In this document: positions 33,984 through 50,309 of the stretch, piece by piece
Position numbering within the stretch: position 1 is the stretch's first letter
How the letters are laid out: each line of letters opens with the position of its first letter
Origin: Candidatus Peribacteria bacterium
Lineage (GTDB): Bacteria; Patescibacteriota; Gracilibacteria; Peribacterales; Peribacteraceae
Reading direction: 5' to 3'
DNA: 64,000 nt
Assembly (NCBI GenBank): GCA_041691135.1
Contig: JBEPVF010000008.1
Span: 8,529-72,528 of the forward strand
Translations under genes and position numbers: made by a program
The notes under the pieces: model-generated
Told to the model about the DNA's origin: nothing
What the model saw: the letters and a program-made list of their open reading frames with translations, nothing else
Databases searched by the model: none

Positions 33984-34409
33984 ATGAGCGCGTACGAGAC
34001 AAATCGTGTCCAACTGAACGAGCAGCGACGACAGCGGACGATCGAGAAGCGTCTCCAGTGGCTGCGGACTTTCTGGCAGGACAACCGCACATTCCGAGAG
34101 AACATCGAGGAATATCTGCGGCGTCAGCCCCAGGTGACAAAGATTGTCGCTCGTTGCAGTCAGTGTATTGCATTGAAAGGCTCGGAATCCGTTACCGTCA
34201 TCAGGACGTTTCGGATTCATCTGCCGATCAACGATCAGCAAAGCTTGATTCAGTACCTCTGCAGTCTCGAGACGGTCGAGGTGCTGGCCGAAATGCTGGG
34301 TGATATCCATCTCGAGCTCAACACTCGACTGCATGATCTCCGCGGAGGTTCGCACAAGCGCCCACGACCGTACCAATTCCGATTTCGCTCGATGCGGTAC
34401 GGAAACTGA
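33984..34409 (+). CDS. Hypothetical protein
   Basis: ATG preceded by GAGGAG. Followed by terminator acgccggc...gccggcgtttttt at ~34494-34530. Confidence 0.55.
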   Translation: MSAYETNRVQLNEQRRQRTIEKRLQWLRTFWQDNRTFRENIEEYLRRQPQVTKIVARCSQCIALKGSESVTVIRTFRIHLPINDQQSLIQYLCSLETVEVLAEMLGDIHLELNTRLHDLRGGSHKRPRPYQFRFRSMRYGN

Positions 34410-34536
34410 GTGATGAAAAGCAATGTTACTGAAAAGGCCGCGGATCAACGCGGCCTCTCGGTGCCAAGGAATGGAATCCCCGCACACATGTGTACGCCGG
34501 CTTTCTCTTACAGGGAGGCCGGCGTTTTTTATTGTA

Positions 34537-34636
34537 CCCCATCCCTAACCCTTCCCCCGCCTCCTCCATTCCGCTTATCAGCGAATCAGATACTTTTCAG
34601 GTGACATATCCTCAGTAACTTTCACGGGGAAGGGGG
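34537..34636. repeat. REP-like CCCTTCCCC...GGGGAAGGG unit
   Basis: ccccatccctaacccttccccc + ~67 nt + ggggaaggggg, the same geometry as the units flanking the DUF559 gene. Confidence 0.55.
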
Positions 34637-34725
34637 ATGTGTGTTGCTTTGTTCTCTCGTCCTTCCCCGCGTTGGCGTATGGGAGGGCCGGGGAAGGTGC
34701 CTTGCAGGGCGGATGGGGTGCACGC

Positions 34726-36996
34726 TCAAATCATCGTCAGCGGCGCGATCGACAAGGCGAAGGTTTTACTCTGCCCGTTATCGAATTTGATCGTCACAAT
34801 GTCGCCGCGCTTGCTGGTCACGTGGCCTTTACCGAAGGTGGGATGCGAGACACGTGTGCCTTCGGCGAAGGCGTCCTGATTCGTATCGTCGTCGGTCTCG
34901 AAATCCTGATTGAACTCCACGTCGATTTTGGGTGCGCCGGCCTGCCGGAACGGTTCCAATTTGCCGGCGCCGAAGTGCACTTGTCCGGCCTTCATGCGGC
35001 CGCTCTCGGATGCCCAGGCGAACGCGCTGAGCAGTTCATCACTGCGGCGCTCCGTCACCCCATCGGGCAAATCGTCCAGGAACCGGCTGGGAGCGTTGGC
35101 CTGTGTGTTGCCCCACAACATGCGATTGCGGGCGAACATCAGGACGAGTTTGGTTTTGGCGCGCGTCATGCCGACGTACATCAGCCGCCGTTCTTCTTCC
35201 AACTGCGCTTTGTCGAAGGCACTGTTGCTGTGCGGAAAGATCCCTTCTTCGCAGCCACCTATCATCACGTGTTCGAACTCCAGGCCTTTGCACAGGTGCA
35301 GAGTCATCAGCGTAATGGCGTCGTCGCGGACATCGTTGAGCTTATCGACCTCGGAGACGAGCGCAGCTTCTTCCAAAAAACTGGTGAGGGATGTTTGCGG
35401 ATCAAGCGCGTCGTACTTGTGCATCACGCTGAGGAGTTCCTGGACGTTCTGCCAGCGCTCCTCGCCTTCCTCACTCTCGTCGCGCAGCCATTTTTCCATG
35501 TCGATCGAGTGCAGCAGATTCTCGGTCAGTTCCGAGACGACGACGCCTTTGGCGCGTTCCTGTGCCCGTTCAATCAACCCGACGAATTGTTGCAGGCGCA
35601 CTTTTGTCGGTTCGTTGATCGTCGGCACGTTCTCGATATCCTTGAGTGTATCCCACAGTGTCAGTTTCTGGTCACTGGCATAGGCTTGCAGATTTCCAAT
35701 CGTCGTCTGGCCGATCTTGCGGGTGGGCACGTTGATGATGCGCAGCAGCGATATCGTGTCGTACGGATTGAGAATTGCGTACAGGTAGGCGATCACGTCC
35801 TTCACTTCGCGGCGGGCGTAGAATTTGACGCCGCCGACGATGCGGTAGGGGACGCCGTTGCGCATGCAGGCTTCTTCGAACAAACGTGATTGGGCGTTAG
35901 TGCGGTACAGAATCACCTGGTCGTTAAACTGCACGCCATCGGTCCGCATCTGCGAGGCACGTTTGATGGCTTCTTCGGCTTCCTTCTTCTCGTCCGATAC
36001 TTCCTGCACCGTCACCATCGGGCCTTCTTTACGGCTGGTCCACATCTGCTTTTCGGGACGATTTGGATTGGCGGCGATCACCGCATTAGAGGCGGTCAGG
36101 ATCGGCTGGGCCGAGCGGTAATTCTGTTCGAGCTTGATGTGCAGTGCGTCGGGGTATTCGTTCTCGAACTCCATGATGTTGCGGATATCGGCGCCGCGGA
36201 AAGCGTAGATCGACTGGTCTGGGTCGCCGATCACGCACAGATTGCGGTACTTCTGCGCCAGCATCGAGATCATCAGATACTGGGCGTGGTTGGTATCCTG
36301 ATACTCATCCACATGCAGGTAGCGCCACGACTCCTGGTACCGGTCGAGCACGTCGGGCACTTCGCGGAACAGGCGCACTGTTTCCAGAATCAGGTCGTCA
36401 AAGTCCATCGCATTCGCTGCAGCCAGTGCTTTTTGATACTTGCCGTACGCCACGATGATCTGTTGCATGCGGGCAGTAGTTGCCTGGCTTAATGCTTCTT
36501 GCGGATTTAGCGCTTCGGATTTCAGGCGGCTGACGTTACCCAGGGCGGCACGCGGTTTGATCTCTTTCTCGTCGATGTGCATCTCCTTCAGGATCTCCTT
36601 CATCACTTTCTCCTGATCGTCGCTGTCGTAGATAACGAAGTTGCGGTTACGGCCCATCCGTTCGATATCGCGGCGCAGCATGCGGACGCACACCGAGTGG
36701 AACGTGCCCATCACCGGCAATTTCCCCGGATCATTGCTCTTGGTCTCCGTTCCCTCAGTCAAATGCAGTAATCCTTTGATACGTGCCTTCATTTCGGTTG
36801 CCGCTTTGTTGGTGAATGTCACCGCCAAAATCTGCCACGGCGGAATACCTTGCTGCATCATATACGCGATGCGATGCGTGAGTGCTTTGGTCTTGCCGGA
36901 GCCGGCCCCTGCCAAGATCAACGCCGGTCCCCGAATATTCTCCACCGCTTGGCGCTGTGGTTCGTTTAAGTTATTGAAAATCAGATCAGAATTCAC
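34726..36996 (-). CDS. pcrA: ATP-dependent DNA helicase PcrA/UvrD
   Basis: AGAGSGKT, TFTNKAA, VDEYQD, QNYRS, EEERRLMYVGMTRA motifs and C-terminal Tudor-like domain. Confidence 0.95.
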   Translation of the reverse strand: MNSDLIFNNLNEPQRQAVENIRGPALILAGAGSGKTKALTHRIAYMMQQGIPPWQILAVTFTNKAATEMKARIKGLLHLTEGTETKSNDPGKLPVMGTFHSVCVRMLRRDIERMGRNRNFVIYDSDDQEKVMKEILKEMHIDEKEIKPRAALGNVSRLKSEALNPQEALSQATTARMQQIIVAYGKYQKALAAANAMDFDDLILETVRLFREVPDVLDRYQESWRYLHVDEYQDTNHAQYLMISMLAQKYRNLCVIGDPDQSIYAFRGADIRNIMEFENEYPDALHIKLEQNYRSAQPILTASNAVIAANPNRPEKQMWTSRKEGPMVTVQEVSDEKKEAEEAIKRASQMRTDGVQFNDQVILYRTNAQSRLFEEACMRNGVPYRIVGGVKFYARREVKDVIAYLYAILNPYDTISLLRIINVPTRKIGQTTIGNLQAYASDQKLTLWDTLKDIENVPTINEPTKVRLQQFVGLIERAQERAKGVVVSELTENLLHSIDMEKWLRDESEEGEERWQNVQELLSVMHKYDALDPQTSLTSFLEEAALVSEVDKLNDVRDDAITLMTLHLCKGLEFEHVMIGGCEEGIFPHSNSAFDKAQLEEERRLMYVGMTRAKTKLVLMFARNRMLWGNTQANAPSRFLDDLPDGVTERRSDELLSAFAWASESGRMKAGQVHFGAGKLEPFRQAGAPKIDVEFNQDFETDDDTNQDAFAEGTRVSHPTFGKGHVTSKRGDIVTIKFDNGQSKTFALSIAPLTMI

Positions 36997-37045
36997 CCGC
37001 AAAGTGTAGCTGATCCGTTCCAAAATGTGAGAGATTTTCAGTCTT

Positions 37046-37318
37046 TTATGCTGCCTCAATCACCCCGGGAATATTTCGAAGAGCTTGTATAATTTCCAGT
37101 CGATTGTCTCCTGCCGCGCAACTGATACGAATACGACGGATAGGCTGGTCAGTTTCCTCTAATGCCTGATAACTGTAGCCACGAACTAGTGTCATGCCGG
37201 AAACTACGCCAAGTATTTCTTGTAATGCATCGGAAGAGTTGCGGATACAAATACTAAGCGGCTTTTCTGCATAGCTACTGTCCATATCTGTTTCCGAGTG
37301 TTCAGGGGCAATATTCAT
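37046..37318 (-). CDS. Hypothetical protein (90 aa)
   Basis: ORF fills the gap between the rmuC-like gene and pcrA on the same strand. Confidence 0.45.
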   Translation of the reverse strand: MNIAPEHSETDMDSSYAEKPLSICIRNSSDALQEILGVVSGMTLVRGYSYQALEETDQPIRRIRISCAAGDNRLEIIQALRNIPGVIEAA

Positions 37319-37400
37319 GGATTTGCAGAAAGAGCTGACAGCATAAACAAGAAGAAATGTGGGTCAACTAATTTTGACATCTTTGTCACACAAAGGCTTT

Positions 37401-38690
37401 CTATAGCAATGTCTGCACTGCATCCATTTCATTGTTCTTCTTCCGATTCAGTGCCTTCAGCGTTGTTTTCTCCATTACCGTATCAATGAGGGCCGACTTC
37501 ATTTGATCTATGTCGCGAGGTTGCACAGCGACTTGTGGCGAAACCAACTGCTCAATTTCTTCCTCCTGGTTACTCAGTTTGGAGACCATACGCTTGATGT
37601 CCGCTGCGGCGAGCGATGCTTTGGCGTTCATCGGTTGTTTCTTGAGCGCCACTTCTTCAGCCAATGCTGGGTCCACGCGCTGTGTTTTCTGCAGCAGTTC
37701 GGTGCCCATTTTCGACATAATGATATCGGCGGCATTGCGCAGGTTAATGTGGAAGTCGAGCTCGGCAATCAGCTGAACCACATTCTCTCGCTGCTGCGGA
37801 TCCATCTGCTCGGCGAATTCGTAGAGCGCAATGCGCTTGAGGCTGGCGAGGATGGGTACGACTGCTTCGGGCGAGATGACGAACACGGAGTAACCCTCGA
37901 CAATATAATGATGGTTCTTCAACTCGCTGATGGCGGATGTGGGAACGATCAGGAAAATGGATTTGTAGATCTGCTCGTTGTCTTTCACTTTCTGCACGGT
38001 GTCCTTCACCTGATTATTGATGTACGTCTGCAGGCTCTTGGCCTTCGAGACCTTGGCATCGAAGATGACGTACTGGCCCAAAAATTCAATCATGAAATCG
38101 GGCTTGAGACTGCCGTCAAAGCCGGCAGGAAGATTCGTATTGTTGTAGGCAGTGAAGGCGAATTGCGGCTGTTTGCACAGATCGGTGAGCGCGGCGATCA
38201 CCGTGTTCTCGTGATCAGCCCACATGCGGTCGCGTGCTTCTTCCAACTGTTTGCGATATTCCATGTCTTCCTGAATCACGCGCTCCTGTTCTCTGCGAAA
38301 ACTCTGCTCGGCATGGGCGATTTTAGTAATCGAATCGGCATGCTCTTTTTCCTTGCGCTCGCGTTCGGCTTCGAAACGCGTCAGGCGTGACCGTAGTTCT
38401 TGGTTCTCTTTGGCCGTATTTTCCAAAGCCGCCTCGATCTGCTTATTCTGCGCAAACAGAGCTTTGCCTTTTCCTTCCTGTTGGTTCCGCTCCATGCGTT
38501 CCATCTCGTTCTGTTCACTCAGCTTCCCAATTTCTCTGGTTCGTTCATCCAAATGCGCTTTCAATGTCACGTTCTCCTCAATCAATTGACCGTATTGCTG
38601 ATCAAAATCGGTGGCTGATTTCTGGAATTTCAGAAGGTAGATGACAGCGCCGAAACCGATGATCACAAACAGGGGAGTGAGGAATTCCAT
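37401..38690 (-). CDS. RmuC-like protein (TM, coiled coil, PD-(D/E)XK domain)
   Basis: N-terminal TM, long coiled coil and LKPDFMI...IFDAK motif. Confidence 0.7.
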   Translation of the reverse strand: MEFLTPLFVIIGFGAVIYLLKFQKSATDFDQQYGQLIEENVTLKAHLDERTREIGKLSEQNEMERMERNQQEGKGKALFAQNKQIEAALENTAKENQELRSRLTRFEAERERKEKEHADSITKIAHAEQSFRREQERVIQEDMEYRKQLEEARDRMWADHENTVIAALTDLCKQPQFAFTAYNNTNLPAGFDGSLKPDFMIEFLGQYVIFDAKVSKAKSLQTYINNQVKDTVQKVKDNEQIYKSIFLIVPTSAISELKNHHYIVEGYSVFVISPEAVVPILASLKRIALYEFAEQMDPQQRENVVQLIAELDFHINLRNAADIIMSKMGTELLQKTQRVDPALAEEVALKKQPMNAKASLAAADIKRMVSKLSNQEEEIEQLVSPQVAVQPRDIDQMKSALIDTVMEKTTLKALNRKKNNEMDAVQTLL

Positions 38691-39050
38691 GAGAGAATAG
38701 AGAAAAGGACAGGGAGGAATGTGTAGTATCGGTGCTGTTCGTCGTCTGACACGATGCTAACGCCTGGTGCACGTATGTCCACTTATATTTTTTATGGCTC
38801 ATGGCCTAATGCAATTCACCTCCTCTTGTGCAGCCAGAAAAAGGGAAAATGAACGAGAAGTATCGCAAATTTTCCTCCTTTCGTCGCTTGTCTCATTTGC
38901 GGTATTTTGCCCTTTTAGACCAATAAAACGGTGAATAACTTGCTTTTTGCCGACCTATACGTACAATAATGCTCCGTCCGCGCTCCGCACAACGATTTCG
39001 TTTGCGAGGCCCGGCACTAATCTTTTTTGTCCGGTTCCCATTCCTGCCGT

Positions 39051-39320
39051 ATGTCCATCAAGCGCACCCAGAAAAAGAAGATCATCAACAAGCATCGTAA
39101 GCACGATAAAGACACCGGCTCCCCGCAGGTGCAGATCGCGATCCTCACGACCGAAATCGGTCTGCTGACCGACCATCTGAAGAGCCACAAGAAGGATCAC
39201 TCGGCCCGCAAAGGTTTGCTCGCCAAAGTAGCCGACCGCCGCACCCAGCTGAAGTATCTGGAGATGAACAAGCCGACGGAGTATCAGGATGTGTTGCAGG
39301 CGTTGGGCCTCAAGAAGTAA
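39051..39320 (+). CDS. rpsO: 30S ribosomal protein S15
   Basis: DTGSPQVQIAILT and HKKDHSARKGLL motifs. Confidence 0.97.
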   Translation: MSIKRTQKKKIINKHRKHDKDTGSPQVQIAILTTEIGLLTDHLKSHKKDHSARKGLLAKVADRRTQLKYLEMNKPTEYQDVLQALGLKK

Positions 39321-39341
39321 TTGTTCAAACTATGATTATCC

Positions 39342-39370
39342 AAAAGGGCGCAGGAGACTGCGCCTTTTTT
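39342..39370 (+). terminator. Intrinsic terminator after rpsO
   Basis: aaaagggcgcag-gaga-ctgcgcctttttt. Confidence 0.8.
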
Positions 39371-39433
39371 CGTAGTTGACCCCTCTGGACCTTCTGAGTA
39401 TTCTCGATCCTCTTTGTATTTCTGTAACGGTAC

Positions 39434-39778
39434 ATGAATTCAAATTCCACGCCACTGAGCCTGTTTGTGTCCCGCAATACCTTAACGTATTTGGGGGCAA
39501 GGACCGGTACGGATCATATAGATGAAGATGTAGCGCGGTTATGCACCGTACTGGGTATTTCCGAAGACATGCGCTGTCGGTTGGATAGGGCCTTGTTGCT
39601 ATTTGAACTCAGACGATTTCCAAAGCCTACACCGTTCGATGAAGGTTTTCGTTTTGAGGCGACCGATAAAAATGAGCGTGTATTTGCTTCTGTCACGATG
39701 GGAGGGCAGCACCTGCGGCCGATGGCATCAATGGATGAGACTATTGCTCAATTTCTTGGGAAAAAGAAGCGCAAATGA
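39434..39778 (+). CDS. Hypothetical protein
   Basis: 114-aa ORF between rpsO and pnp. Confidence 0.45.
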   Translation: MNSNSTPLSLFVSRNTLTYLGARTGTDHIDEDVARLCTVLGISEDMRCRLDRALLLFELRRFPKPTPFDEGFRFEATDKNERVFASVTMGGQHLRPMASMDETIAQFLGKKKRK

Positions 39779-39988
39779 TGCTTCCTTCGCAGGTTAAAAA
39801 GAGTATACTTTCCGTGCTCTTTCCTTCCGTCGCTCTTACTGCTCTGGGTTTACGTTTATGCTTCGATGCTTGTCATGGTGAGCGGAGTCGAACCATGTAT
39901 GTGAATCCAGCAACATCCATATGAGCGAAGGGAGAGGCAGGGTCGTTCCCGTATTCAGGGACGCCGTACCTTCCTTCCCATTCTTTTT

Positions 39989-42235
39989 ATGTCCTCTTTC
40001 GCAGAGAAAGACCACGAGTATTCGCTCGAACTCGGTGATCAAAAACTGAGTATCAAAACGGGCATGCTGGCCACGCAGGCCAATTCCACCGTTCTCGTCC
40101 AGATGGGCGATACGGTATCCATGGGTAACACCACCATCAGCGCCGAGCCGCGGCCCGGTATTGATTTCCTGCCGTTGCAGCTGGTGTACCAGGAGAAGTA
40201 CTACGCCGGCGGCAAGATCGGCGGCAGCCGCTTCCGTAAGCGCGAAGGACGTCCAAGCGATGACGCCATTCTGCTCGGTCGTGTGATCGACCGCGGCATT
40301 CGTCCGATGGTCGATAAAAACATCCGCAACGACATCCAGATCTTCTGCACGGTTCTCAGCTACGACTTCGAGAATGAGCACGATATCCTGTCGGCCAATG
40401 CGGCTAACCTGTCGATCGCTCTGTCCGATTGTCCGGCTGATGGTCCGCTCGGCACCGTCCGTGTCGGTCTTATCGGCGGTGAATTGGTTTTGAATCCGTC
40501 ACGCGAGGCCCGCACACGCTGCGATTTGGACATGCTCCTTACTGCATCGCTGGATCGCGTCGTCATGATCGAGGCCGGTGCCAATCAGATTGCCGAAGCC
40601 GAGATTGTCCGCGCCATCGAATTCGGCAAGAAATGGGCTCAGAAAATCGCCCGGTTCTTCGCGGATATTCAGAAAGAGATTGGCCGTCCGAAGTTCACAG
40701 TCGAAAAGCCATTCATGCATAAGGAGGGCTACGCCTTCCTGGAATCATGGGTACTGCCCACTGTCACCAAGGCTGTCAAAGAAAAGCTGCGCAAAGGCGA
40801 TCGCCGCGCGATTTTCAACGATCTGATGAAGCAGGCTGGCGACAAATTGAAGGAGAAGTTTGAAGGCAGCGTGACTGATGACAACCGCGAGGAGATGGAG
40901 AAGCTCTTCAGCTACGGCCGCTCGTTCATCGACCAAATCATCAAGGCCGAAGTGCGTCGTTTAGTGCTGGAAGAAGGTATCCGCATGAGCAGCCGCAAAG
41001 TCGACGAAATCCGCCCATTGGCCGCAATGATCGATGTGCTCCCGCAGCGCGTCCATGGCTCGGCATTATTCGAGCGTGGCGAAACACAGGGACTCACCAC
41101 GGCGACACTTGGCGCGCCTGGCGACAAGCAGTTGGTCGAAGGAATGGAAGGCGAGCACAAGCTGCGCTACATGCATCATTACAACTTCCCACCCTTCTCG
41201 GTGGGCGAGACGTCCAACCGTCTGTCGGTGGGCAATCGCGAAATCGGCCACGGCGCCTTGGCACAACGCGCGCTGGAGCCGGTATTGCCGAAGGAAGAAG
41301 ACTTCCCGTACACGATTCGTACAGTGACTGAGATTCTCTCCAGCAACGGTTCGTCTTCGATGGCAGCTACCTGCGGTTCCACGTTGGCACTCATGGCGGC
41401 CGGCGTGCCGATCAGCGCACCTGTGTCGGCTATCGCACTCGGTCTGATGTCGGATGAGTCGAAGGATCAGTACGTCATCCTCAGCGACCTGCAGGATGAA
41501 GAAGACTTCGGCGGCGATATGGACTTCAAAGTCGGCGGTACCGAAAAGGGTGTCACCGCTATCCAGATGGATATCAAGATCAAGGGTTTGCCGGATCACG
41601 TGTTTGCTGAGGCATTGGAGCGTGCACGCACCGGTCGTCAGTTCATACTCCAGGTAATGCTCAAAGCCATCGCCGAGCCACGCAAGGAGCTGAGCCCGTA
41701 CGCACCGCGCATCGAAACGATGCAGATCAATCCGGAAGATATCCGCTTGGTAATCGGCAAGGGTGGCGAAATGATCCAGAAGATCACCGGCGAGCTGGGC
41801 GTGGAGATCGATATCGAGGATTCAGGTCTGCTCTTTATCACTTCGGCAAATGGCGAAGCCATGCAGAAGGCCAAGGAGTGGATCCAGGGTATCGTGGCCA
41901 AACCCGAAGTGGGCAAGGTCTACCATTCCAAAGTGACGCGCATCATCGACGGTGTGGGTGCCATCGTGGAATTCTTGCCCGGCAAAGACGGCATGGTCCA
42001 CATCTCGGAACTCCAATGGGGTCGCACCGAACACGTCGAGGACATCCTCAAAATGGGACAGGAAGTGGATGTAAAAGTGATCGAGTACGATGCCATGGAA
42101 GGCAAGACGCGTTTGTCGCTCAAGCAGATGACCGAGCCGCCCGAAGGCTACCAGCCGCCGATGCGCAGCGGCGGATTCGGCGGACGACCCGGCGGTCCTC
42201 CACGCGGCGGATTCAGTCGCGGACCACGTCGTTAA
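39989..42235 (+). CDS. pnp: Polyribonucleotide nucleotidyltransferase
   Basis: DFLPL, REGRPS, HGSALFERGETQ, SNGSSSMA and GDMDFKV motifs, plus KH and S1 domains. Confidence 0.97.
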   Translation: MSSFAEKDHEYSLELGDQKLSIKTGMLATQANSTVLVQMGDTVSMGNTTISAEPRPGIDFLPLQLVYQEKYYAGGKIGGSRFRKREGRPSDDAILLGRVIDRGIRPMVDKNIRNDIQIFCTVLSYDFENEHDILSANAANLSIALSDCPADGPLGTVRVGLIGGELVLNPSREARTRCDLDMLLTASLDRVVMIEAGANQIAEAEIVRAIEFGKKWAQKIARFFADIQKEIGRPKFTVEKPFMHKEGYAFLESWVLPTVTKAVKEKLRKGDRRAIFNDLMKQAGDKLKEKFEGSVTDDNREEMEKLFSYGRSFIDQIIKAEVRRLVLEEGIRMSSRKVDEIRPLAAMIDVLPQRVHGSALFERGETQGLTTATLGAPGDKQLVEGMEGEHKLRYMHHYNFPPFSVGETSNRLSVGNREIGHGALAQRALEPVLPKEEDFPYTIRTVTEILSSNGSSSMAATCGSTLALMAAGVPISAPVSAIALGLMSDESKDQYVILSDLQDEEDFGGDMDFKVGGTEKGVTAIQMDIKIKGLPDHVFAEALERARTGRQFILQVMLKAIAEPRKELSPYAPRIETMQINPEDIRLVIGKGGEMIQKITGELGVEIDIEDSGLLFITSANGEAMQKAKEWIQGIVAKPEVGKVYHSKVTRIIDGVGAIVEFLPGKDGMVHISELQWGRTEHVEDILKMGQEVDVKVIEYDAMEGKTRLSLKQMTEPPEGYQPPMRSGGFGGRPGGPPRGGFSRGPRR

Positions 42236-42306
42236 TCATCGGACTGATCATGACTATTCAGAGCGGCGATATCCATCGCCGCTTTTGATAAATGCTAGTT
42301 TCCGGC

Positions 42307-43215
42307 TCACTCGGTATCTGGTGTTTTAGGCAGCTTTTTCTTTTCGGCTCGTTGAATCTTTTCCTCCAGGATCACCGTGAATTTATCGAGCCGGTCAAAC
42401 GCCTTTTGCTTGTCGGGACGCGTGGCATAGGGCGAAATTTTGCGCCAGGTAGGCATTGCCACCTGCAACGACGAGAGCAGCCCCCGCAGTTCCGCAGCAT
42501 TGGTGTGTTTGATATGCCAATTGATTTTTGTTTGCTGGAAGACGCCGAGCAGTGAATCCAATCGCATGATGGTGCGGGTGACGGCGTCGAGCAGCAGATT
42601 CTCTCGCTTCTCATCGACGGAGTACAAATGGGCGTGCTCCTGATAGAACTCGGGAATGTCTTCCAAAAGGCCTTGGGCGTGGCGGTAGGCGATGGTGAGG
42701 TTTTCCCAATCGTGGTCCTGCAATGCCTGCTCCTCATTCATATGCTGGATGGCATTGTCGAAGTCTTTGCGAATGATGTAGAACCCTTCGCGTGTGCTGT
42801 AGAACACGTTTTCGAATATCAACCGGTATACCAATTCGAGGGTCATCTCCTGGCGGTGCGAGACGATCTTGGCGACGAAGAGCGCGGCGATGAAGAATCC
42901 AATGACGCTCTGGCTGGCGGCGACTGCACGACAGAAGCCTTGGGGGGTCAGGTCGCCGTAGCCCACGGTGGTGGAGGTGACGATGCTGAAGTACAAGCTG
43001 TTCCAGAATCGCGGAACCGATTCCATTCCCGTCAGACCCGTGATGCCGTTGATACTTTCCGGATAACTGAGGAAGAAGTATGCCAGCGCGTATGCAATGA
43101 CTATCCCGGTCCACAGCGAAAACAATTGCCCGTAGGGGGCCTTGGTCAGTATCTCCATGAAATGGAGCGGAGCACGGTACGTGTGGCGCAGGTTATCCCG
43201 CAATCTCGTATTCAT
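42307..43215 (-). CDS. Potassium channel family protein (2-TM pore)
   Basis: Selectivity filter TTVGYGD. Confidence 0.88.
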   Translation of the reverse strand: MNTRLRDNLRHTYRAPLHFMEILTKAPYGQLFSLWTGIVIAYALAYFFLSYPESINGITGLTGMESVPRFWNSLYFSIVTSTTVGYGDLTPQGFCRAVAASQSVIGFFIAALFVAKIVSHRQEMTLELVYRLIFENVFYSTREGFYIIRKDFDNAIQHMNEEQALQDHDWENLTIAYRHAQGLLEDIPEFYQEHAHLYSVDEKRENLLLDAVTRTIMRLDSLLGVFQQTKINWHIKHTNAAELRGLLSSLQVAMPTWRKISPYATRPDKQKAFDRLDKFTVILEEKIQRAEKKKLPKTPDTE

Positions 43216-43273
43216 TCGCCACTATTGTGTTGGTAATTTCCGTTGGTGGGAAGCATCGCGACTTGTGCCGTAC

Positions 43274-43561
43274 TCAGGCTGGTTTTGCCGTATCTTTTTT
43301 GGAGGGTTCCGGCGCCGGTTTCGATTCACTTTTTTCGGCGGCCGGCGCTGCAGGTGCAGTTGTCTCTTTTGGCGTCGGCGAGCGGTTGGCATCCGTTTTG
43401 TAGAAACCCGATCCTTTGAAATGAATCGCCGGCGGCGACATCAGCTTTTCCACGCGCTTGCTTTTGCACTTCACGCACGGCGGCAGAGTTTTGCTGCCGA
43501 AGGGCAGTGTTTCTTCAAACACTGTTCCGCATTTCTGACACTGGAAATCGAACGTGGGCAT
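43274..43561 (-). CDS. FmdB-family zinc-ribbon protein
   Basis: MPTFDFQCQKCG...CVKC...FKGSGFYKTD. Confidence 0.88.
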   Translation of the reverse strand: MPTFDFQCQKCGTVFEETLPFGSKTLPPCVKCKSKRVEKLMSPPAIHFKGSGFYKTDANRSPTPKETTAPAAPAAEKSESKPAPEPSKKDTAKPA

Positions 43562-43759
43562 GGGAGGGGAGTATAGCAGGCTCAGGTGTCAGTGGTCAGC
43601 GCCCGGAGCCCAATGCTTTTTCGTACAAGACGCGGAGACCCCATATTCCCACTCCAATTCCTCCTGCAGCTAAGCCTAGCTGTAGGACGGAACATCCACC
43701 AATGTGAGTGTGTAAGACGTTGCCGAGAGCTGCAGCGGGGTGATTGAGTGGCATGTATG

Positions 43760-44131
43760 TCAGGCAGCTGTCCTGGAGACATGATCCACGCCGGTAAATT
43801 CTTCGATGACGTCTTGTCCGGCAGCGCCGATGATACCGAGGCCGGTGGTGATGCGTGTCGCAATGCCGGTGCCGCTTCCGAATACGATACCCAGGGATCG
43901 ACGCGTCCTCGCCATGTGGCCGACCAATGGAGGCACCTCTTTGGTTGTTCCATCGATAGTGCGGGCGGCTTTGTCGATCAACAGGTCGGGTCCCTCCAAC
44001 AGGATGCTTGTCACGCCAGCGACGTTCTTCAGGGGATCACCCAGGTAATCATCCGCTGCGCGGCTGCGCCATTCGTGAAGTGCCGATTCGTAGGCCAGTA
44101 GCCGATGTTCAGCGATTTGATTCTCCCTCAC
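43760..44131 (-). CDS. Hypothetical protein
   Basis: 123-aa ORF of plausible composition. Confidence 0.45.
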   Translation of the reverse strand: MRENQIAEHRLLAYESALHEWRSRAADDYLGDPLKNVAGVTSILLEGPDLLIDKAARTIDGTTKEVPPLVGHMARTRRSLGIVFGSGTGIATRITTGLGIIGAAGQDVIEEFTGVDHVSRTAA

Positions 44132-44282
44132 CCGTACAAACTACTACTATTTCGACAGGCAATCCCGGAAAAACTTGCGTTTTTTATGATAACTAAGTAT
44201 AACAAAGCCGCTTTGCGCTTAGGCGCAGCTCCGCTCTTTCTATTCTCTTGAAAAATGACCGCCCTCAAAAGCGGTTATTTTT

Positions 44283-44741
44283 TTGTCTTTTTTGCAAGCG
44301 CTTCCCCATGCAGTTGCTCTCCTGCTACGATCAGCTGTCTTCCTCCCCCGCATGCGTCAACAACTCAAAAAAATTCTTCCGGAATCATGGCTGCACTACG
44401 AGTTTAATAATCGCCAGATGCAGTGGGTGCTGATTCTGGGAAGCATCATGCTGTCGATGCTGGTGCTCTTCGCAAGTATCTCGACGCAAACGCCACTCGA
44501 TCTGTTCCTGTGGGGCGGATCGATCATCTTCATCGCTGTTTTCTGCTCGCCATCTCTCAGCTCGGTGCAGAACGCGTGTGGCAACGGTCTGGATGGTTTG
44601 TCGGACCGCGGATGGATGGTTGTCCATTTGCTGAGTAATGCGGTGTTCTACTACGTTGTTTTTCTGCTGCTCATCTTGCTGGTGCGGTTGGTGCAGAAGG
44701 CGGAGCCTGACAAGGCAATGGTGAAGGAGAAGATGGCATAG
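44283..44741 (+). CDS. Hypothetical membrane protein (3 TM; start uncertain)
   Basis: Three hydrophobic segments. Confidence 0.55.
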   Translation: MSFLQALPHAVALLLRSAVFLPRMRQQLKKILPESWLHYEFNNRQMQWVLILGSIMLSMLVLFASISTQTPLDLFLWGGSIIFIAVFCSPSLSSVQNACGNGLDGLSDRGWMVVHLLSNAVFYYVVFLLLILLVRLVQKAEPDKAMVKEKMA

Positions 44742-45335
44742 CCCCTCATCCCCGGCCCTTCTCCCTCCACACCAATTCAATAAGGTACATAACAAGCCAT
44801 GGAGCTGGTATTTGCTACACGTGCGCTTACCGGGAGAAGGGAGGTAAGATAATATGAGTTGTGCGGGCTTTAATTTTCGACAAAACAAAAGACAAATCAT
44901 TGATAACTTCTGTATTAGTGAAATGAATCACGCGGTATCCTTTTTGACTTAAATAAGTTTCTCGAAATGCATCATATTCTTTCTGCATGTCATGAATTGG
45001 TCCATCTATCTCTATAATAAGACTCTGCTCAAAACAAAGAAAATCAGCAATATACCATCCGACTGGAACTTGTCGGCGGAATTTTAATCCATCCAGACAT
45101 CGGCTTCGGAGGGCATCCCACAAAATAGTTTCCGCCTTGGTCATACGTTTTCGCAGACGCTTTGCAAAGCGGGTCTTGCTTCGTCTCATAACTGTAGTAT
45201 CGATTTGTACTACAAAATCATCTATAGACTCACTCCCTTCTCCCGGCAGGTTTCTGACGTTTCTTTGAACTGGCAGCGTCAAAATGAGTTCTATACTGAT
45301 CTGGTACAGAGGGAGAAGGGCCGGGGATGAGGGGC
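44741..45335. mobile_element. Candidate element: DUF559 nuclease bounded by nested inverted repeats
   Basis: Perfect 27-bp IR at 44741-44767/45309-45335 and perfect 14-bp inner IR at 44830-44843/45233-45246. The interior is AT-rich. Confidence 0.55.
44827..45189 (-). CDS. DUF559 (Vsr/PD-(D/E)XK-like) endonuclease
   Basis: RLRKRMTKAETILW, KFRRQ, YIADF, IEIDGPIH and GYRVIHFTN motifs. Confidence 0.9.
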   Translation of the reverse strand: MRRSKTRFAKRLRKRMTKAETILWDALRSRCLDGLKFRRQVPVGWYIADFLCFEQSLIIEIDGPIHDMQKEYDAFRETYLSQKGYRVIHFTNTEVINDLSFVLSKIKARTTHIILPPFSR

Positions 45336-45381
45336 CAGAGAGGGCTGCGCCCCCGCTCATTTTCATCTATGATTCCGGCCA

Positions 45382-48039
45382 ATGCTCCCCAAAGCCTATT
45401 CCCCATCGGATACCGAAGACCGCATCTACCAGCTGTGGGAAGAGACGGGAGCGTTCCATGCCGATGCCAAGAGCAAGAAGGAGCCGTTTACTATCAGCAT
45501 GCCGCCGCCGAATGCTACAGGGCAGCTGCACTTGGGCCATGCGGTGATGTTGGCACTGGAAGATATCTTCATTCGCCATGCGCGGATGCAGGGTAAGGAG
45601 GCGCTATGGGTGCCGGGCACCGACCATGCGGCCATTGCGACGGAGAACGTGGTGATTCGCCTGCTCAAGGAACAGGGGATGAAGGATCCGCGCAAAGAGC
45701 TGGGACGCGAAAAACTGATCGAGAAGATTGCCGAATTCGTCGAGCAGAGCCGTGGCACCATTCGCGGCCAGGTGCGCAAAATGGGTTCAAGCTGTGACTG
45801 GGAGCGCGAGCGCTACACGCTGGAGCCGGCGCTCAACCGCGTGGTCAACGAGGTGTTTGCCCGGATGTATAAAGACGGCCTTATTTACCGCGGTCACCGC
45901 ATCGTGAACTGGGATCCCAAGCTACAGACGACGATCTCCGACGACGAGATCGCTTGGAAAGAGGAAACGGCGCCGTTCTACACGTTCCAGTACGGACCGT
46001 TCCAGATCGGCACGTCACGTCCGGAGACCAAATTTGGCGACAAGTACGTGGTGATGCATCCGGATGATGAGCGCTACGCCAAGTATAAAAACGGCGATAC
46101 GTTCGAAGCTGAGTGGATCAATGGACTGGTGCGCGCGACGGTGATCAAAGATACGGCCGTCGATCCTGCTTTTGGTACCGGAGTGATGACGATCACGCCG
46201 TGGCACGACACAGCGGACTTCGAGATTGCCGAGCGACATGGACTGGAGCGTGAACAGATCATCGATTTCCAAGGCAAATTGCTACCAGTTGCCGGTGAGT
46301 TCGCCGGTATGCCGATCGAAAAGGCGCGGCCGCTCGTGGTCGAGAAGCTCAAGGAAAAGGGATTGCTCGTGAAAACTGACGAGAACTATCTTCATAATAA
46401 AGCTACCTCAAGCCGCGGCGGTGGGACGGTGGAACCACAGATTAAGTTGCAGTGGTTCATCGATGTGAAGAAAGAAGTAGTAACTTGGAAGGGTAAGATC
46501 ATGAGCCTTAAGCAAATCATGCACGAAGTCGTGCATAGCGGCGATATTACGATCTTACCGGACCGTTTTGCGAAGCAATATTTTCACTGGATCGATAACC
46601 TGCGTGACTGGTGTATCAGTCGCCAAATCTGGTGGGGGCACCGCGTCCCTGTGTGGTACAAAGCCGATGAAACGTATGTAGGTATCACACCGCCGGAAGG
46701 AGCTGGATGGCAACAGGATACTGATACGCTCGATACGTGGTTCAGCTCGGCCATGTGGACGTGGAGTACGTTGCTCGATCCTAAATTGGCAGTCGACCAC
46801 TCAGTTACGTTGGAAGAGTTACTAAAACGGAGTCCTGATTTTCAGAAGTTCCATCCTACAACGGTGATGGAAACGGGATACGATATTCTTCCGTTTTGGG
46901 TTGCCCGCATGATCTTGATGACGACGTACGCGGTGGGTCAGATTCCATTCGAGACGGTGTACCTGCATGGCCTGATCCGCACGCGTGACGGTCGCAAAAT
47001 GAGCAAATCGGATCCCGACAGCATGATCGATCCGCTCGATATGATTGCGAAGTACGGGACGGATGCGCTTCGCCTGTCGATGATCGTCGGACAGAGCCCG
47101 GGTGCCGATTCACGCCTGTATGAGGAGAAGATCGGCGGTTACCGCAACTTCGTGAACAAGCTCTGGAATGCTTCGCGCTTCATATTATTGCAGTGCGAAT
47201 CAGCCGAAATCGATCCGCACGATATTGAATTGTTCGATCAGGAAGGACTGACGGTGGCGGATCAGGCGTTGCTCTCTGCGTTACAGGATTTGGTGACTGA
47301 CGTAACAGCCGGGCTCGCGGAATATCGCCTGAGCGAAGTGGGGGAGCGGCTCTACAGCTTCGTGTGGGATTACTTCTGCGACTGGTATCTGGAGCTCAGC
47401 AAAGGTGAGGCGAATTACGCCGTGCTGCTCCACGCACTTCGCACGTTGCTCAAACTCCTGCATCCGTACTGTCCCTTCGTGACGGAGGAAATCTGGACGC
47501 ACGTGAAGCCGGAGCACGCCAAGCTCCTCATCCAAGAAGAATGGCCATTGGCCGACGAAGCGTTCAAAAATAAGGACGCGTTCGATCAGTTGCAGGTGGT
47601 GATCGACATTATCACGGCTATCCGCAAGCTGCGCACCGATCACCAGGTGCCGCTCGACAGTCATCCGGAGGTTGTGTTGGTGGTGCAGGGAAAGCAGGAT
47701 TCATTAGTTGATCAAGTCGAGCAGATCGTGCGCATGGCGCGTATCGGTGCGCTCAAGATTGGATCCAAGCCGCCGCAGGGCGAAGTGGCGAGTGCATTCT
47801 TGTCCGGTATTGAAGTCCATATGTTGCTCGAAGGCTTGGTGGATAAAGACAAGGAAAAGGCGAACCTTCTCAAAGAGCAGGAGAGCCTGGTGGCTTATGC
47901 ACAAGTGCTCAGAGGGAAGCTGGAAAATAAGCAGTTCATCGAACGGGCACCACATCAGCTGGTTTCCGCAGAGCGAGAAAAATTGGCCGAAACGGAGGAG
48001 AAGTTGAAAAAGATTGGAGAGCGATTGGGAAGCTTGTAA
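45382..48039 (+). CDS. valS: Valine--tRNA ligase
   Basis: PPPNATGQLHLGH, DWCISRQIWWGH, KMSKS and C-terminal coiled coil. Confidence 0.97.
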   Translation: MLPKAYSPSDTEDRIYQLWEETGAFHADAKSKKEPFTISMPPPNATGQLHLGHAVMLALEDIFIRHARMQGKEALWVPGTDHAAIATENVVIRLLKEQGMKDPRKELGREKLIEKIAEFVEQSRGTIRGQVRKMGSSCDWERERYTLEPALNRVVNEVFARMYKDGLIYRGHRIVNWDPKLQTTISDDEIAWKEETAPFYTFQYGPFQIGTSRPETKFGDKYVVMHPDDERYAKYKNGDTFEAEWINGLVRATVIKDTAVDPAFGTGVMTITPWHDTADFEIAERHGLEREQIIDFQGKLLPVAGEFAGMPIEKARPLVVEKLKEKGLLVKTDENYLHNKATSSRGGGTVEPQIKLQWFIDVKKEVVTWKGKIMSLKQIMHEVVHSGDITILPDRFAKQYFHWIDNLRDWCISRQIWWGHRVPVWYKADETYVGITPPEGAGWQQDTDTLDTWFSSAMWTWSTLLDPKLAVDHSVTLEELLKRSPDFQKFHPTTVMETGYDILPFWVARMILMTTYAVGQIPFETVYLHGLIRTRDGRKMSKSDPDSMIDPLDMIAKYGTDALRLSMIVGQSPGADSRLYEEKIGGYRNFVNKLWNASRFILLQCESAEIDPHDIELFDQEGLTVADQALLSALQDLVTDVTAGLAEYRLSEVGERLYSFVWDYFCDWYLELSKGEANYAVLLHALRTLLKLLHPYCPFVTEEIWTHVKPEHAKLLIQEEWPLADEAFKNKDAFDQLQVVIDIITAIRKLRTDHQVPLDSHPEVVLVVQGKQDSLVDQVEQIVRMARIGALKIGSKPPQGEVASAFLSGIEVHMLLEGLVDKDKEKANLLKEQESLVAYAQVLRGKLENKQFIERAPHQLVSAEREKLAETEEKLKKIGERLGSL

Positions 48040-48101
48040 GGCAAGCGTCCGGGAGTAATACTGGCTGCATCTTCAATCCAGAACTAAAAGGAGGATTGCT
48101 G

Positions 48102-48386
48102 ATGAAGAGATGGCTCTTTGCTGTGTTCTTCTTGAGCACAGCTGTCTACGCCGGCTACAGAGCGCTCACGGCGTTCCTTGTTGCCGATTGGGCAAAAATG
48201 CTCGTTCTTGGAGGCTTCGCGGCCTGTTCTCTCCTGGCGATGGTTGTCTCTTTCATGGCTATCGGGCAAACGCATCCGCGTGCCCTGGTCGATGAAGCTG
48301 ACGAAGAAGAGCCAGATGACGAAGAAGAGGAAGCAGAAGCCCCAGAGACTGTTGCTTCCGATCAGCCGTCGGCTCCCATTGCGTGA
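48102..48386 (+). CDS. Hypothetical membrane protein with acidic tail
   Basis: Two TM segments followed by an E/D-rich C-terminus. Confidence 0.55.
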   Translation: MKRWLFAVFFLSTAVYAGYRALTAFLVADWAKMLVLGGFAACSLLAMVVSFMAIGQTHPRALVDEADEEEPDDEEEEAEAPETVASDQPSAPIA

Positions 48387-48426
48387 GCTAACGTCCGGTC
48401 ACCCCGGCGGACAATGTCCGCCGGTT

Positions 48427-49662
48427 TTATTCATACACCGACCAATTCAAAGCCGGCTTTGTCCCACTGGATATTTGTAATGCCGATCCACGGGTGATGG
48501 CCTGGCGTCCATAGCGCTCGTGGAGTTCATCGAGCGACTTCTGCAGTGCCTCGCGTTCGATGGCTTTCTGTGGGTCTTCGAATAGGGAGAACTGCTGGCC
48601 GCCGCAGACGCGTAGGTTCCAGAGGGCCAGTCCCACTTGGGTGTACGCATAGTTTTGTTCGTAGAGGCGTCGGAAGCAGCGCTCCACGTAGGGTCGGACG
48701 TGGTCCTCGGTATTGAACAGTTGGGGTAGAGAGGCATGGGCGCTTTCGTAGAGATACTTATTGTCGCGCAGCCACACGGTGATGCCGCGACAGGCCAGAT
48801 CGTGTCGGCGCATCTTGAGGACGGTGTATTCCAGGTGACGCAGAGTGTGGGCCCAGAGGAGCATTTTGTCTTTGAGCGGTGCGAAGCTGCGGGCGCGCGA
48901 GACGGATTTAGGCGGCGCGTGGGTACGGGCAACAGGGGACAAGAGTTCACCCTGCAGCTCTCGCTGCATCTCTATTCCGCTCTTACCGAATTGCTGCTTC
49001 AGGAGGCCCGGATTCGCTGTCGCAATATCCCAGGCCGTGTGCCAGCCCAGTCGTTGGGTGTGCACTTGTCTCCGTGGTCCGATGCCGGGGATGGCCGCCG
49101 CAGGACGGTCTTCCAGGAATGCCCTCACCCCTAGCCCCTCTCCCTCCACGCCTATGCCTTCTGGGAGAGGGGAATTTAAGACGACAGTCACACCACCGGG
49201 CTTGCGGTACTCGCTGGCCATCTTGGCGAGCAGCTTGGAGGAGCCGATGCCGACGGACACCGAGAGGCCGGTGCGCAGCAGAACTTCTTGCCGGACGTTC
49301 GTCCCCCATGTGCTCAGGTTTGGAGGAACGCCGCCCATGATGCTGGGCAGATCGAGAAACCATTCGTCGATGGAGAACTGCTCGAAGAATGGACAGTGCT
49401 CTTCCAGGATCGTTTCAAGTTGATTCGATGCGACGCCGGTTTCGCGGAAGTCGGAATGGACTTTCAATGCCTCCGGACACAGCTTGATGGCATCAACCAG
49501 ACGCATGCCCGTCCGTACACCTTTAGCTTTCGCTTCGTAACTGGCGGCGATCACACAGCCACCACCCATGCCGAGTGCCAGCAGCGGTTTTCCGCGCAGC
49601 CGGGGATCTTTTCGGACAAGAACCGATGCAAAAAAAGAGTCCGCATCAACATGGGCAATCAT
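48427..49662 (-). CDS. dinB: Y-family DNA polymerase (DinB/Pol IV-like)
   Basis: HVDADSFFAS, SYEAK, SIDE, KLLAKMAS..KP and IPGIG motifs. Confidence 0.92.
   Translation of the reverse strand: MIAHVDADSFFASVLVRKDPRLRGKPLLALGMGGGCVIAASYEAKAKGVRTGMRLVDAIKLCPEALKVHSDFRETGVASNQLETILEEHCPFFEQFSIDEWFLDLPSIMGGVPPNLSTWGTNVRQEVLLRTGLSVSVGIGSSKLLAKMASEYRKPGGVTVVLNSPLPEGIGVEGEGLGVRAFLEDRPAAAIPGIGPRRQVHTQRLGWHTAWDIATANPGLLKQQFGKSGIEMQRELQGELLSPVARTHAPPKSVSRARSFAPLKDKMLLWAHTLRHLEYTVLKMRRHDLACRGITVWLRDNKYLYESAHASLPQLFNTEDHVRPYVERCFRRLYEQNYAYTQVGLALWNLRVCGGQQFSLFEDPQKAIEREALQKSLDELHERYGRQAITRGSALQISSGTKPALNWSVYE
49122..49172. repeat. REP-like palindrome inserted in frame within dinB
   Basis: ccctcacccctagcccctctccc...gggagagggg encodes SPLPEGIGVEGEGLGVR on the - strand. 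Confidence 0.7.
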
Positions 49663-49706
49663 GGAGTATGTGGGGGAATGATCGATGGTGTACGTCCGAC
49701 TCCGTT

Positions 49707-50309
49707 TTAGTACTTCCGTATAACGCCGCGTACCACTCCTGCCACTTGCAATTCGTCCATGGCATACAGATCGGGATACGCGTCGTTCTCGGCTTGCAGG
49801 TAGTACTTTCCTTTCTCCTTTCTCAGTCTCTTCAGCGTGAACTCGCCATCAAGGACACCGACGACGATATCCTGGACTTTGGGGGTGGCTCCGCGTTCGA
49901 CAATCACCAGATCGCCTTCGTGGATACCGGCGTTGATCATGCTGTCGCCCTTCACACGGAGGAGGAACGTGGAGGCTTTATCGCGGACAAGATAGTTTTC
50001 GAGCGTCACTGTTTCCTCGGCTTGTTCTTCGACAGGCGCCGCAAAACCGGCGGAAATCGGACCGAAGAGAGGGAGAGAGAACGGCATATACGCCGCTTCG
50101 TCGGCACGCTCCAGGATTTTGATGCGTCCCTTGGGATCTTTATCCAGATGCCCATCACGGGTCAGTACATTCACCACTTTGGCGATGGCATTCTTACTAC
50201 GTACACCGAAGGCAATCGCCAGATCGGCGAGCGAAGGGGAGTACCCTTTCTTCAGTTGGAATTCACGAATGTAGCTCAGGACCGTTCGTTGATGAGGGGT
50301 GAGGGACAT
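49707..50309 (-). CDS. lexA: LexA repressor (wHTH + S24)
   Basis: GYSPSLADLA, ISAGF cleavage site, GDSM serine and TLKRL lysine. Confidence 0.88.
   Translation of the reverse strand: MSLTPHQRTVLSYIREFQLKKGYSPSLADLAIAFGVRSKNAIAKVVNVLTRDGHLDKDPKGRIKILERADEAAYMPFSLPLFGPISAGFAAPVEEQAEETVTLENYLVRDKASTFLLRVKGDSMINAGIHEGDLVIVERGATPKVQDIVVGVLDGEFTLKRLRKEKGKYYLQAENDAYPDLYAMDELQVAGVVRGVIRKY

Follow-up and report, generated by a model that had tools for sequence, protein, structure and literature searches.

A DUF559 gene enclosed by inverted mirror-box repeats forms an inserted cassette in Candidatus Peribacteria, and the pairing recurs across bacteria

The spacer upstream of valS in a genome of Candidatus Peribacteria poses the question of why a small DUF559 gene should be enclosed by inverted copies of a G/C-rich repeat, and whether gene and repeats belong together. 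The locus was studied in the window, the whole stretch of 64,000 nt that was analysed, starting from a sequence-only reading in which a DUF559–repeat partnership with a REP/RAYT-like layout had been proposed and the loops of the repeats had been considered as captured or guide-like sequences. In what follows, G000 is the source genome, a Candidatus Peribacteria, and the labels G001 to G014 denote the genomes of relatives.

The segment from 44741 to 45335 is an inserted cassette of ~595 bp, consisting of an intact DUF559 nuclease gene and two inverted copies of the G/C-rich repeat, and it is located in the spacer separating a small membrane-protein gene from valS (G000 contig 8; Table 1). The outer inverted repeat (44741–44782 and 45294–45335) extends over 42 nt with 86% complementarity, its first 27 nt being perfect, while the inner inverted repeat (44830–44843 and 45233–45246) is perfect over all of its 14 nt. 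Each end of the cassette carries a hairpin, CCCTTCTCCC ... GGGAGAAGGG, whose arms are complementary at 10/10 bases and lie exactly 66 nt apart at both ends. These coordinates bear out the perfect 27-bp outer and 14-bp inner inverted repeats, and the hairpin with a ~66-nt spacer at either end, that had been described in the sequence-only reading. A search for the arm 10-mer, allowing at most one mismatch, gave 14 matches in the window compared with 3.65 ± 1.83 in shuffled sequences, and 0/100 shuffles reached 14. The end of the right cassette loop carries the motif of the repeat family (reverse complement GTCAGAAACCTGCC).

The boundaries of the cassette were inspected for marks of transposition. 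No direct repeat or target-site duplication was seen at the cassette ends (..GGCATA / element / CAGAGA..), and a Pfam profile search of the cassette found no transposase gene. Among 48 relatives on metagenome contigs there was no near-identical second copy to define the ends, the best full-length relatives being ~50% identical. A promoter and terminator scan of 44500–45600 returned sites no more numerous than in shuffled sequences. An Rfam search of 34000–50000 at E <= 1 found no intron and nothing at the cassette, its single match being a sub-threshold, STnc40-like one at 39300–39370.

Table 1. Features of the cassette and of the gene-less repeat elements in the window (positions count from the first nucleotide of the window)
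Feature	Coordinates	Strand	Description
Left outer box A (GCCCCTCATCCCCGG)	44741..44755	+	Complementary to the G-rich mirror box; makes up the outer portion of the perfect 27-nt inverted repeat
Left hairpin	44756..44841	+	Arm B CCCTTCTCCC 44756–44765, 66-nt loop 44766–44831, arm B' GGGAGAAGGG 44832–44841
DUF559 (putative Vsr-like PD-(D/E)XK) nuclease gene	44827..45189	-	120 aa; stop codon 44827–44829; G+C ~0.36–0.45
Right hairpin	45235..45320	+	Arm B 45235–45244, 66-nt loop 45245–45310, arm B' 45311–45320
Right outer box A' (CCGGGGATGAGGGGC)	45321..45335	+	CCG linker, then mirror of arm B' at 10/10 positions (purine-motif triplex rules)
Gene-less two-hairpin element, subfamily 2	34536..34719	+	Fold z -2.96
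Single unit, 18-nt loop	49121..49173	+	In frame inside the Y-family DNA polymerase gene 48427–49662 (minus strand)

The protein encoded by the cassette was matched by the DUF559 profile (PF04480) with an E-value of 5.4e-36 and 123.2 bits against a cut-off of 20.6, over profile positions 3–106 of 109; the Pfam scoring was carried out on the longer open frame 44827–45366 and not on the 120-aa open reading frame alone. Its other Pfam match, MTES_1575, was sub-threshold, and no match to a Y1 (HUH) transposase was found. In an alignment of 14 homologues, the cassette protein included, residues D45, E56, D58 and H62 are invariant, and the D, E-x-D, H pattern is kept. The closest solved structure is PDB 3hrl, which is itself a DUF559 protein (E 4.4e-20). 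By these sequence criteria the protein is a member of the DUF559 family and a predicted Vsr-like PD-(D/E)XK nuclease. Inside its gene the G+C content falls to 0.355–0.375, compared with 0.53–0.61 in the neighbouring genes, in agreement with the AT-richness relative to valS that had been noticed beforehand, and its last codons are encoded by the left inner arm B'. A 179-aa open reading frame reaching 45366 was considered as the true gene and rejected: its start is probably false, because the extension is nothing but stop-free repeat, and 16 nt separate its ATG from the start of the divergent valS gene.

The distribution of the repeat was established by a census of the source genome assembly (1.74 Mb in 35 contigs, 52.9% G+C), which identified 26 units of the form A-B-loop-B', all of them with exact arms of at least 8 nt. 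The arms are of the GGGAGAGGG type in 18 units, GGGGAAGGG in six and GGGAGAAGGG in two, the last being the two cassette units. The cassette's own subtype, CCCTTCTCCC, is confined to the cassette (2/26 units), so that the DUF559 gene has not visibly amplified its repeats in this genome, and for the largest subfamily, with its 18 units, the assembly contains no DUF559 partner. The third unit that had been reported in the window, at 34537–34636, does exist; it is, however, only the left half of a two-hairpin element of ~185 nt that continues to 34719. The order within this element is A, B, a 68-nt loop, B', 26 GT-rich nt, B, a 20-nt loop, B' and A', and its outer geometry is like that of the cassette without the gene. 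Its left hairpin is formed by CCCTTCCCC at 34549–34557 and GGGGAAGGG at 34626–34634, with 68 nt between the 9-nt arms. The window also holds a fourth, short-loop unit, beyond the three of the sequence-only reading (Table 1, last row).

A census of loop lengths, which had been suggested together with the original claims, showed that these are narrow genome-wide, with 60–70 nt in 23/26 units and 15–19 nt in the other 3/26. The loops are homologous within subfamilies, and the narrow length can be put down to common descent. In subfamily 1, an alignment of 15 units gave a mean column identity of 82%, arms included, and the loop end CAGAGACCTGCC is conserved. Between the two cassette loops there is only a weak resemblance (p = 0.024 by global alignment against 2000 shuffles); the right loop is related to the subfamily-1 loops (z up to 4.7), whereas the left loop resembles none of those. 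The loops had been called unrelated, a description that is nearly right for the cassette pair and wrong for the family as a whole.

The folding of the loops was compared with that of shuffled sequences. Loops alone folded no better than their shuffles (mean z -0.07, n = 20), single units folded weakly better (z -1.4 to -1.5), and the consensus fold of 14 subfamily-1 units consisted of the outer stem only. Small inner loop hairpins that had been seen by eye were dropped, because their register shifts between copies. The comparison of the loops with host, self and phage sequences, likewise suggested at the outset, was negative: BLAST of the three loops against the genome returned matches of 12–16 nt at chance level, apart from family edges, and the whole cassette had no match among 50,697 phage records. 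What the loops contain is inherited filler whose ends are conserved, and not captured sequence.

The relationship between the outer box and the hairpin arms was examined under the purine-motif rule, in which G stands opposite G, and either A or T is allowed opposite A. Read in this way, outer box and purine arm are mirror images in 26/26 units (score 1.00). The non-mirrored reading reaches 0.9 in only 3/11 units with asymmetric arms, and stands at 0.80 for both cassette units. Each arm variant is accompanied by its own box, GGGAGAGGG by GGGTGAGGG, GGGGAAGGG by GGGATGGGG and GGGAGAAGGG by GGGATGAGGG; arm and box covary in the mirror, not the complementary, sense.

The same order of parts, in which the C-rich arm and its loop are followed by a G-rich arm, a linker of 3 nt and a further G-rich box mirroring the first with T opposite A, characterizes the BoxC/PIT/TMECO repeats of E. 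coli and other Proteobacteria, whose TMECO consensus is given as CCCTCNCCC N3-6 GGGNGAGGG N3 GGGNGAGGG (Holder et al. 2015, PMC4666352). The Peribacteria repeat shares the design of these intrastrand-triplex repeats, with a long first loop, and because that loop is 66 nt in the cassette as against 3–6 nt it was filed as a long-loop variant and not as a consensus member. The first loop measures 60–70 nt in 23/26 Peribacteria units, compared with 3–6 nt in TMECO (PMC4666352); the sequences also differ from the E. coli consensus, and some Peribacteria units lie inside coding regions, whereas the TMECO sites reported in PMC4666352 are intergenic only. Long loops were also found in the congener G001 and were rare elsewhere (median 5 nt; at least 40 nt in 12/111 loops). 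As with BoxC/PIT/TMECO, the Peribacteria units occur as singles and as inverted doublets and mark variable loci. BoxC/PIT/TMECO repeats are present in many copies in hundreds of genomes, and local genome instability is the only property reported for them in the sections of PMC4666352 drawn on here; in the same sections, no associated enzyme is described by Holder et al. 2015 (PMC4666352), and neither ycjD nor an endonuclease occurs in the text.

The presence of the cassette in relatives was studied at the valS locus and elsewhere. An empty site upstream of valS, which was to be looked for according to the sequence-only reading, was found in G003, a member of the same genus: here the orthologous membrane gene and valS are separated by ~130 nt, and the DUF559 gene and both repeat flanks are absent together. 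The corresponding spacer of G004 holds an unrelated 172-aa open reading frame, and the G001 contig starts inside an apparent gene-less doublet ~100 nt upstream of valS.

Copies of the cassette were also located inside protein-coding genes. In the riboflavin-synthase genes of G002 (same genus), G006, G007 and G014 the cassette lies in frame between the two lumazine-binding domains, giving the Pfam order Lum_binding - DUF559 - Lum_binding of riboflavin-synthase type in four genera, while the riboflavin-synthase gene of G000 is uninterrupted at that loop. Pfam searches of relatives also placed DUF559 inside a GidB/RsmG gene and inside a radical-SAM gene, and fused to IPPT/MiaA. Seven in-gene copies were checked by Pfam, and 7/7 were on the host strand and in frame; the in-gene copies contained host domains and DUF559 only, with no intein domain. 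A phylogeny of 30 DUF559 domains groups the RsmG copy with all four riboflavin-synthase copies in a single clade (100/98) and pairs it there with one of the four as its sister (95/84). These two sister copies have the flank sequence CCTCCATCCCCC..CCCCTTCCTCC in common, and the sister position together with the common flanks implies that the repeats travelled with the DUF559 gene into a new host gene. Judged from these comparisons, gene and flanks constitute one insertion, which is present or absent as a block and moves as such.

To what extent DUF559 genes adjoin such repeats in general was addressed in the source genome and in three wider collections. The source genome has two DUF559 genes, and both adjoin units (2/2). 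The second is on contig 11, where a complete subfamily-2 element with two hairpins stands 48 nt away on one side and no repeat was found on the other; the gene is beside this doublet and not inside it. For the wider collections, a hairpin was scored where an exact C-rich 8-mer arm (at least six C) and its complement stood 3–100 nt apart within 250 nt of a DUF559 match, and windows 600–850 nt away in the same loci were taken as controls. DUF559 was present in 31/41 related small genomes, and 30/31 loci there had complete flanks; a hairpin was detected on either side in 21 of them and on both sides in eight, compared with 0/57 control windows. The second collection, of GTDB genomes, was searched with a six-sequence DUF559 alignment and spans Peribacteria, Nitrospirota, Alpha-, Beta-, Gamma- and Deltaproteobacteria, Planctomycetota, Chloroflexota and other phyla. 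Here 75/80 loci had complete flanks, with hairpins on either side in 47 and on both sides in 35 (controls 4/143). Metagenome contigs gave 40/48 loci with complete flanks, of which 17 had a hairpin on either side and seven on both (controls 1/68), and all of these frequencies are lower bounds, since the strict detector misses the cassette's own arms.

No hairpin was found by the strict test at 37/105 loci with complete flanks, so the pairing is frequent without being obligatory. Among loci in which both flanks allowed the box to be located, it was outside, as in the cassette, in 10 and inside in five, and the arrangement was direct in three. Visual inspection of individual loci showed that one flank repeats the other in inverted orientation. 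The DUF559–repeat pairing is a real, general and pan-bacterial pattern, and the partnership with a REP/RAYT-like layout that had been proposed for this locus is upheld to the extent that 2/2 genes adjoin units, that the pairing recurs far above the control rate, and that gene and flanks are missing together at the valS site of G003. No paper linking DUF559 to such repeats was found among the open-access papers and bioRxiv preprints searched.

The founding BoxC/PIT/TMECO locus of E. coli, by fabI, also holds a DUF559 gene, ycjD. In K-12, ycjD adjoins fabI and a TMECO lies 167 nt past the ycjD stop; a degenerate hairpin overlaps the stop itself, a duplicated fragment of the ycjD 3' end lies between this hairpin and the TMECO, and no unit was found upstream of the gene. 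The gene sits where other phylogroups have the eefRABCD operon, according to the parts of PMC12817139 used here. A pattern count reproduced the TMECO numbers given in PMC4666352 for K-12 (23) and 55989 (29) and was applied to eight chromosomes, three with and five without DUF559. The three carriers had 23 (K-12), 29 (55989) and 29 (IAI1) TMECOs, and the chromosomes without DUF559 had two (CFT073), one (UTI89), 11 (Sakai), six (IAI39) and seven (SMS-3-5); because the three carriers are close kin, this is essentially one evolutionary contrast. The counts fit a DUF559–repeat partnership, and the repeats persist without the DUF559 gene.

The cassette was also compared with other known systems. In REP/RAYT systems, the gene for a REP-associated tyrosine transposase (Y1/HUH) lies between inverted hairpin repeats, and the repeats are dispersed throughout the genome. 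The cassette resembles them in that a small gene is enclosed by two hairpin repeats in inverted orientation, and in that the repeat is dispersed as gene-less singles and doublets as well. It differs in that its enzyme is a putative Vsr-like PD-(D/E)XK nuclease and not a Y1/HUH transposase, in the mirror (triplex-type) box of its repeats, in the lack of amplification of its own repeat subtype in the source genome, and in that cassettes also occur in frame inside genes. Rickettsia palindromic elements (RPE) insert in frame in protein genes and carry neither a gene nor a mirror box. Palindromic repeats are likewise tolerated in frame in conserved proteins here, as in the polymerase-gene unit and the riboflavin-synthase cassettes, but the cassette has both a gene and a mirror box. 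Unlike an insertion sequence or MITE, it shows no transposase and no visible target-site duplication, and unlike a CRISPR-like or guide array, its loops are homologous within subfamilies and have no matches above chance. The cassette protein and the Vsr-like (EDxHD) homing endonucleases belong to the same fold clan (PMC3424549). I-Bth0305I and the "fractured genes" family are selfish, as the cassette would be, and like it are present or absent at conserved sites in housekeeping genes, but their genes lie within group I introns or separate the two halves of a split intein (PMC3239194, PMC2677866); the DUF559 cassette differs in having repeat flanks only, with no intron or intein, and its in-gene inserts would be translated through.

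One interpretation of these data, and on balance the one that we consider probable, is that the locus is a selfish mobile nuclease cassette with mirror-box repeats and gene-less relatives, whose nuclease would nick the repeats and which the host would then copy. The DUF559 nuclease, like its nicking relative Vsr, may recognize folded or mismatched repeat DNA and nick it, either at folded ends of the repeats or at gene-less single or double repeats elsewhere. Host repair, recombination or replication could subsequently copy the cassette, with the repeats serving as homology, and the 24 gene-less units, singles and doublets, would be targets, relics or non-autonomous relatives. A lone PD-(D/E)XK nuclease is not known to have strand-transfer activity, and any mobility of the cassette would accordingly have to borrow host functions. 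The uniqueness of the cassette subtype, the lack of a partner for the largest subfamily and the lack of a target-site duplication count against an active role in this genome.

A different account of the pairing would be that the repeats are structural or instability elements in their own right and act as rearrangement hot spots, and that DUF559 is an ordinary repair or defence nuclease gained, kept or shuffled there, the pairing then reflecting the survival of insertions and not a relation of enzyme and substrate. This has points in its favour, as TMECO sites are linked to raised local variability with no mobility genes nearby in the portions of Holder et al. 2015 (PMC4666352) considered here, the valS-upstream spacer differs between members of the genus (G003 is empty there, G004 has an unrelated open reading frame and G001 a repeat unit), E. 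coli chromosomes without DUF559 still have TMECOs, and the 37/105 loci have no detectable hairpin. However, mere landing at a hot spot does not predict hairpins on both sides (35/75) or the inverted flank copies seen by eye, control windows in the same loci rarely have hairpins (4/143), and gene and flanks are found together in frame inside conserved genes, with common flanks in the RsmG and riboflavin-synthase copies. Inverted repeats on both sides, in-frame co-insertion and common flanks argue against the hot-spot account, which we regard as rather unlikely. It is improbable, to a clearly greater degree, that DUF559 is a classical homing endonuclease cutting an empty target site, with the repeats as passive linkers or insulators that, being largely stop-free and rich in Pro, Gly and Ser, would make insertions tolerable even inside proteins. 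The Vsr-like clan does contain proven homing endonucleases (I-Bth0305I, PMC3239194; table entry in PMC3424549), the same riboflavin-synthase loop is occupied in four genera and empty in G000, and the seven Pfam-checked in-gene copies are all in frame on the host strand. Related cassettes are nevertheless found at unrelated sites, namely the valS-upstream spacer as well as riboflavin-synthase, RsmG, MiaA and radical-SAM genes, so that a domain of ~105 aa would need many different specificities for homing; moreover, the mirror-box design and the gene-less doublets would be left unexplained, and no intron or intein surrounds the gene.

The inverted flanks could in principle make the gene an invertible segment in a programmed inversion switch, and a "DUF559 domain-containing protein" is indeed 14-fold enriched among predicted programmed-inversion targets in the part of Milman et al. 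(PMC9881135) used here, while perfect inverted repeats of 27 and 14 nt could support recombination. No invertase or recombinase is involved, however, an enrichment of this kind is expected from inverted flanks overlapping the ends of open reading frames by themselves, and in-frame copies within genes would not survive inversion intact, all of which makes a switch very improbable. Hardly credible at all is the proposal of captured or guide-like loops of fixed length, which had been raised in the sequence-only reading. The tight loop lengths (23/26 at 60–70 nt) and the strong difference between the two cassette loops are what it would lead one to expect, but the proposal fails on the homology of the loops within subfamilies, including that of the right cassette loop with subfamily 1, on the lack of matches above chance in the genome and in phages, and on the lack of an array structure, of an Rfam match and of excess folding.

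The selfish, host-copied cassette can be placed in a wider setting, which we put forward only tentatively. DUF559 may possibly be the missing partner of BoxC/PIT/TMECO-type repeats, a structure-specific enzyme that together with them would form a class of transposase-less mobile cassettes spread by nicking and host repair. Such a cassette would leave gene-less singles and doublets behind and could live in frame inside essential genes, and the Peribacteria form, with its 60–70-nt loops, would be a lineage-specific variant. That the repeats recur on both sides of genes from a single small nuclease family makes this a concrete hypothesis, and E. coli K-12 itself carries such a pair, with ycjD. 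If it is true, a role would be assigned to a very widespread domain of unknown function, and the in-frame copies in housekeeping genes would add a type of selfish insert that proteins tolerate without its being spliced out.

A short-loop repeat unit of the genome under study (G000) was found to lie within a protein-coding gene, the product of which matches the Pfam families IMS and IMS_C. The unit is translated in frame and encodes approximately LNSPLPEGIGVEGEGLGVRA, placed between these two domains. The polymerase orthologues of a same-genus genome (G003) and of a further relative (G008) were without the repeat unit, and the orthologue in a second genome of the genus, G001, carries a longer repeat-like insert at the corresponding place. 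In a third, G004, the polymerase match was split into two overlapping parts that differ in reading frame; this points to a frameshift at a repeat-like stretch.

Reading through in frame was also observed for whole cassettes. In related Peribacteria, the DUF559 nuclease gene together with its repeat flanks is read through in frame within, or fused to, housekeeping genes (see table). The insertion site in the riboflavin-synthase type gene is common to four genera and is unoccupied in G000.

Coordinates and loci of the features described. Window positions are those of the whole stretch, which lies on contig 8 of G000; L numbers denote loci.
Feature	Location	Setting
Short-loop repeat unit	window 49121-49173	inside ORF 48427-49662, minus strand (Y-family DNA polymerase gene)
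In-frame DUF559 cassette	L017, L021, L023, L029	riboflavin-synthase type gene
In-frame DUF559 cassette	L024	GidB/RsmG gene
In-frame DUF559 cassette	L019	radical SAM gene
DUF559 cassette	L008	fused to IPPT/MiaA
Mosaic intergenic repeat	G000 contig 2, about 114270-114800, and many other contigs	outside the window
Duplicated ycjD 3'-end fragment	L117 4270-4390 (E. coli K-12)	between TMECO and intact ycjD
Unrelated AT-rich ORF, 172 aa	L033 915-1433 (G004)	spacer upstream of valS, where G000 has the cassette

The subfamily-1 units, the largest group in G000, make up a single module within a ~500-nt intergenic repeat of mosaic structure, which also contains several other hairpins. BLAST returned dozens of partial copies, many of them located at contig ends, and the mosaic repeat therefore probably breaks the G000 assembly. 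One of the copies is situated upstream of a putative ECF sigma factor ORF, so assigned by eye. Elsewhere in the window, a sub-threshold Rfam match to STnc40 at 39300-39370, which scored 34.3 bits where the gathering score is 45 (E 0.0084), is probably due to chance.

The E. coli K-12 ycjD fragment shares a run of ~23 nt with the gene's 3' end (GAATATTCTCCAGCACCGTCTCC) and appears to be what is left of a second DUF559 copy. For the G004 ORF, no significant Pfam family was found. The spacer upstream of valS is an insertion hot spot.
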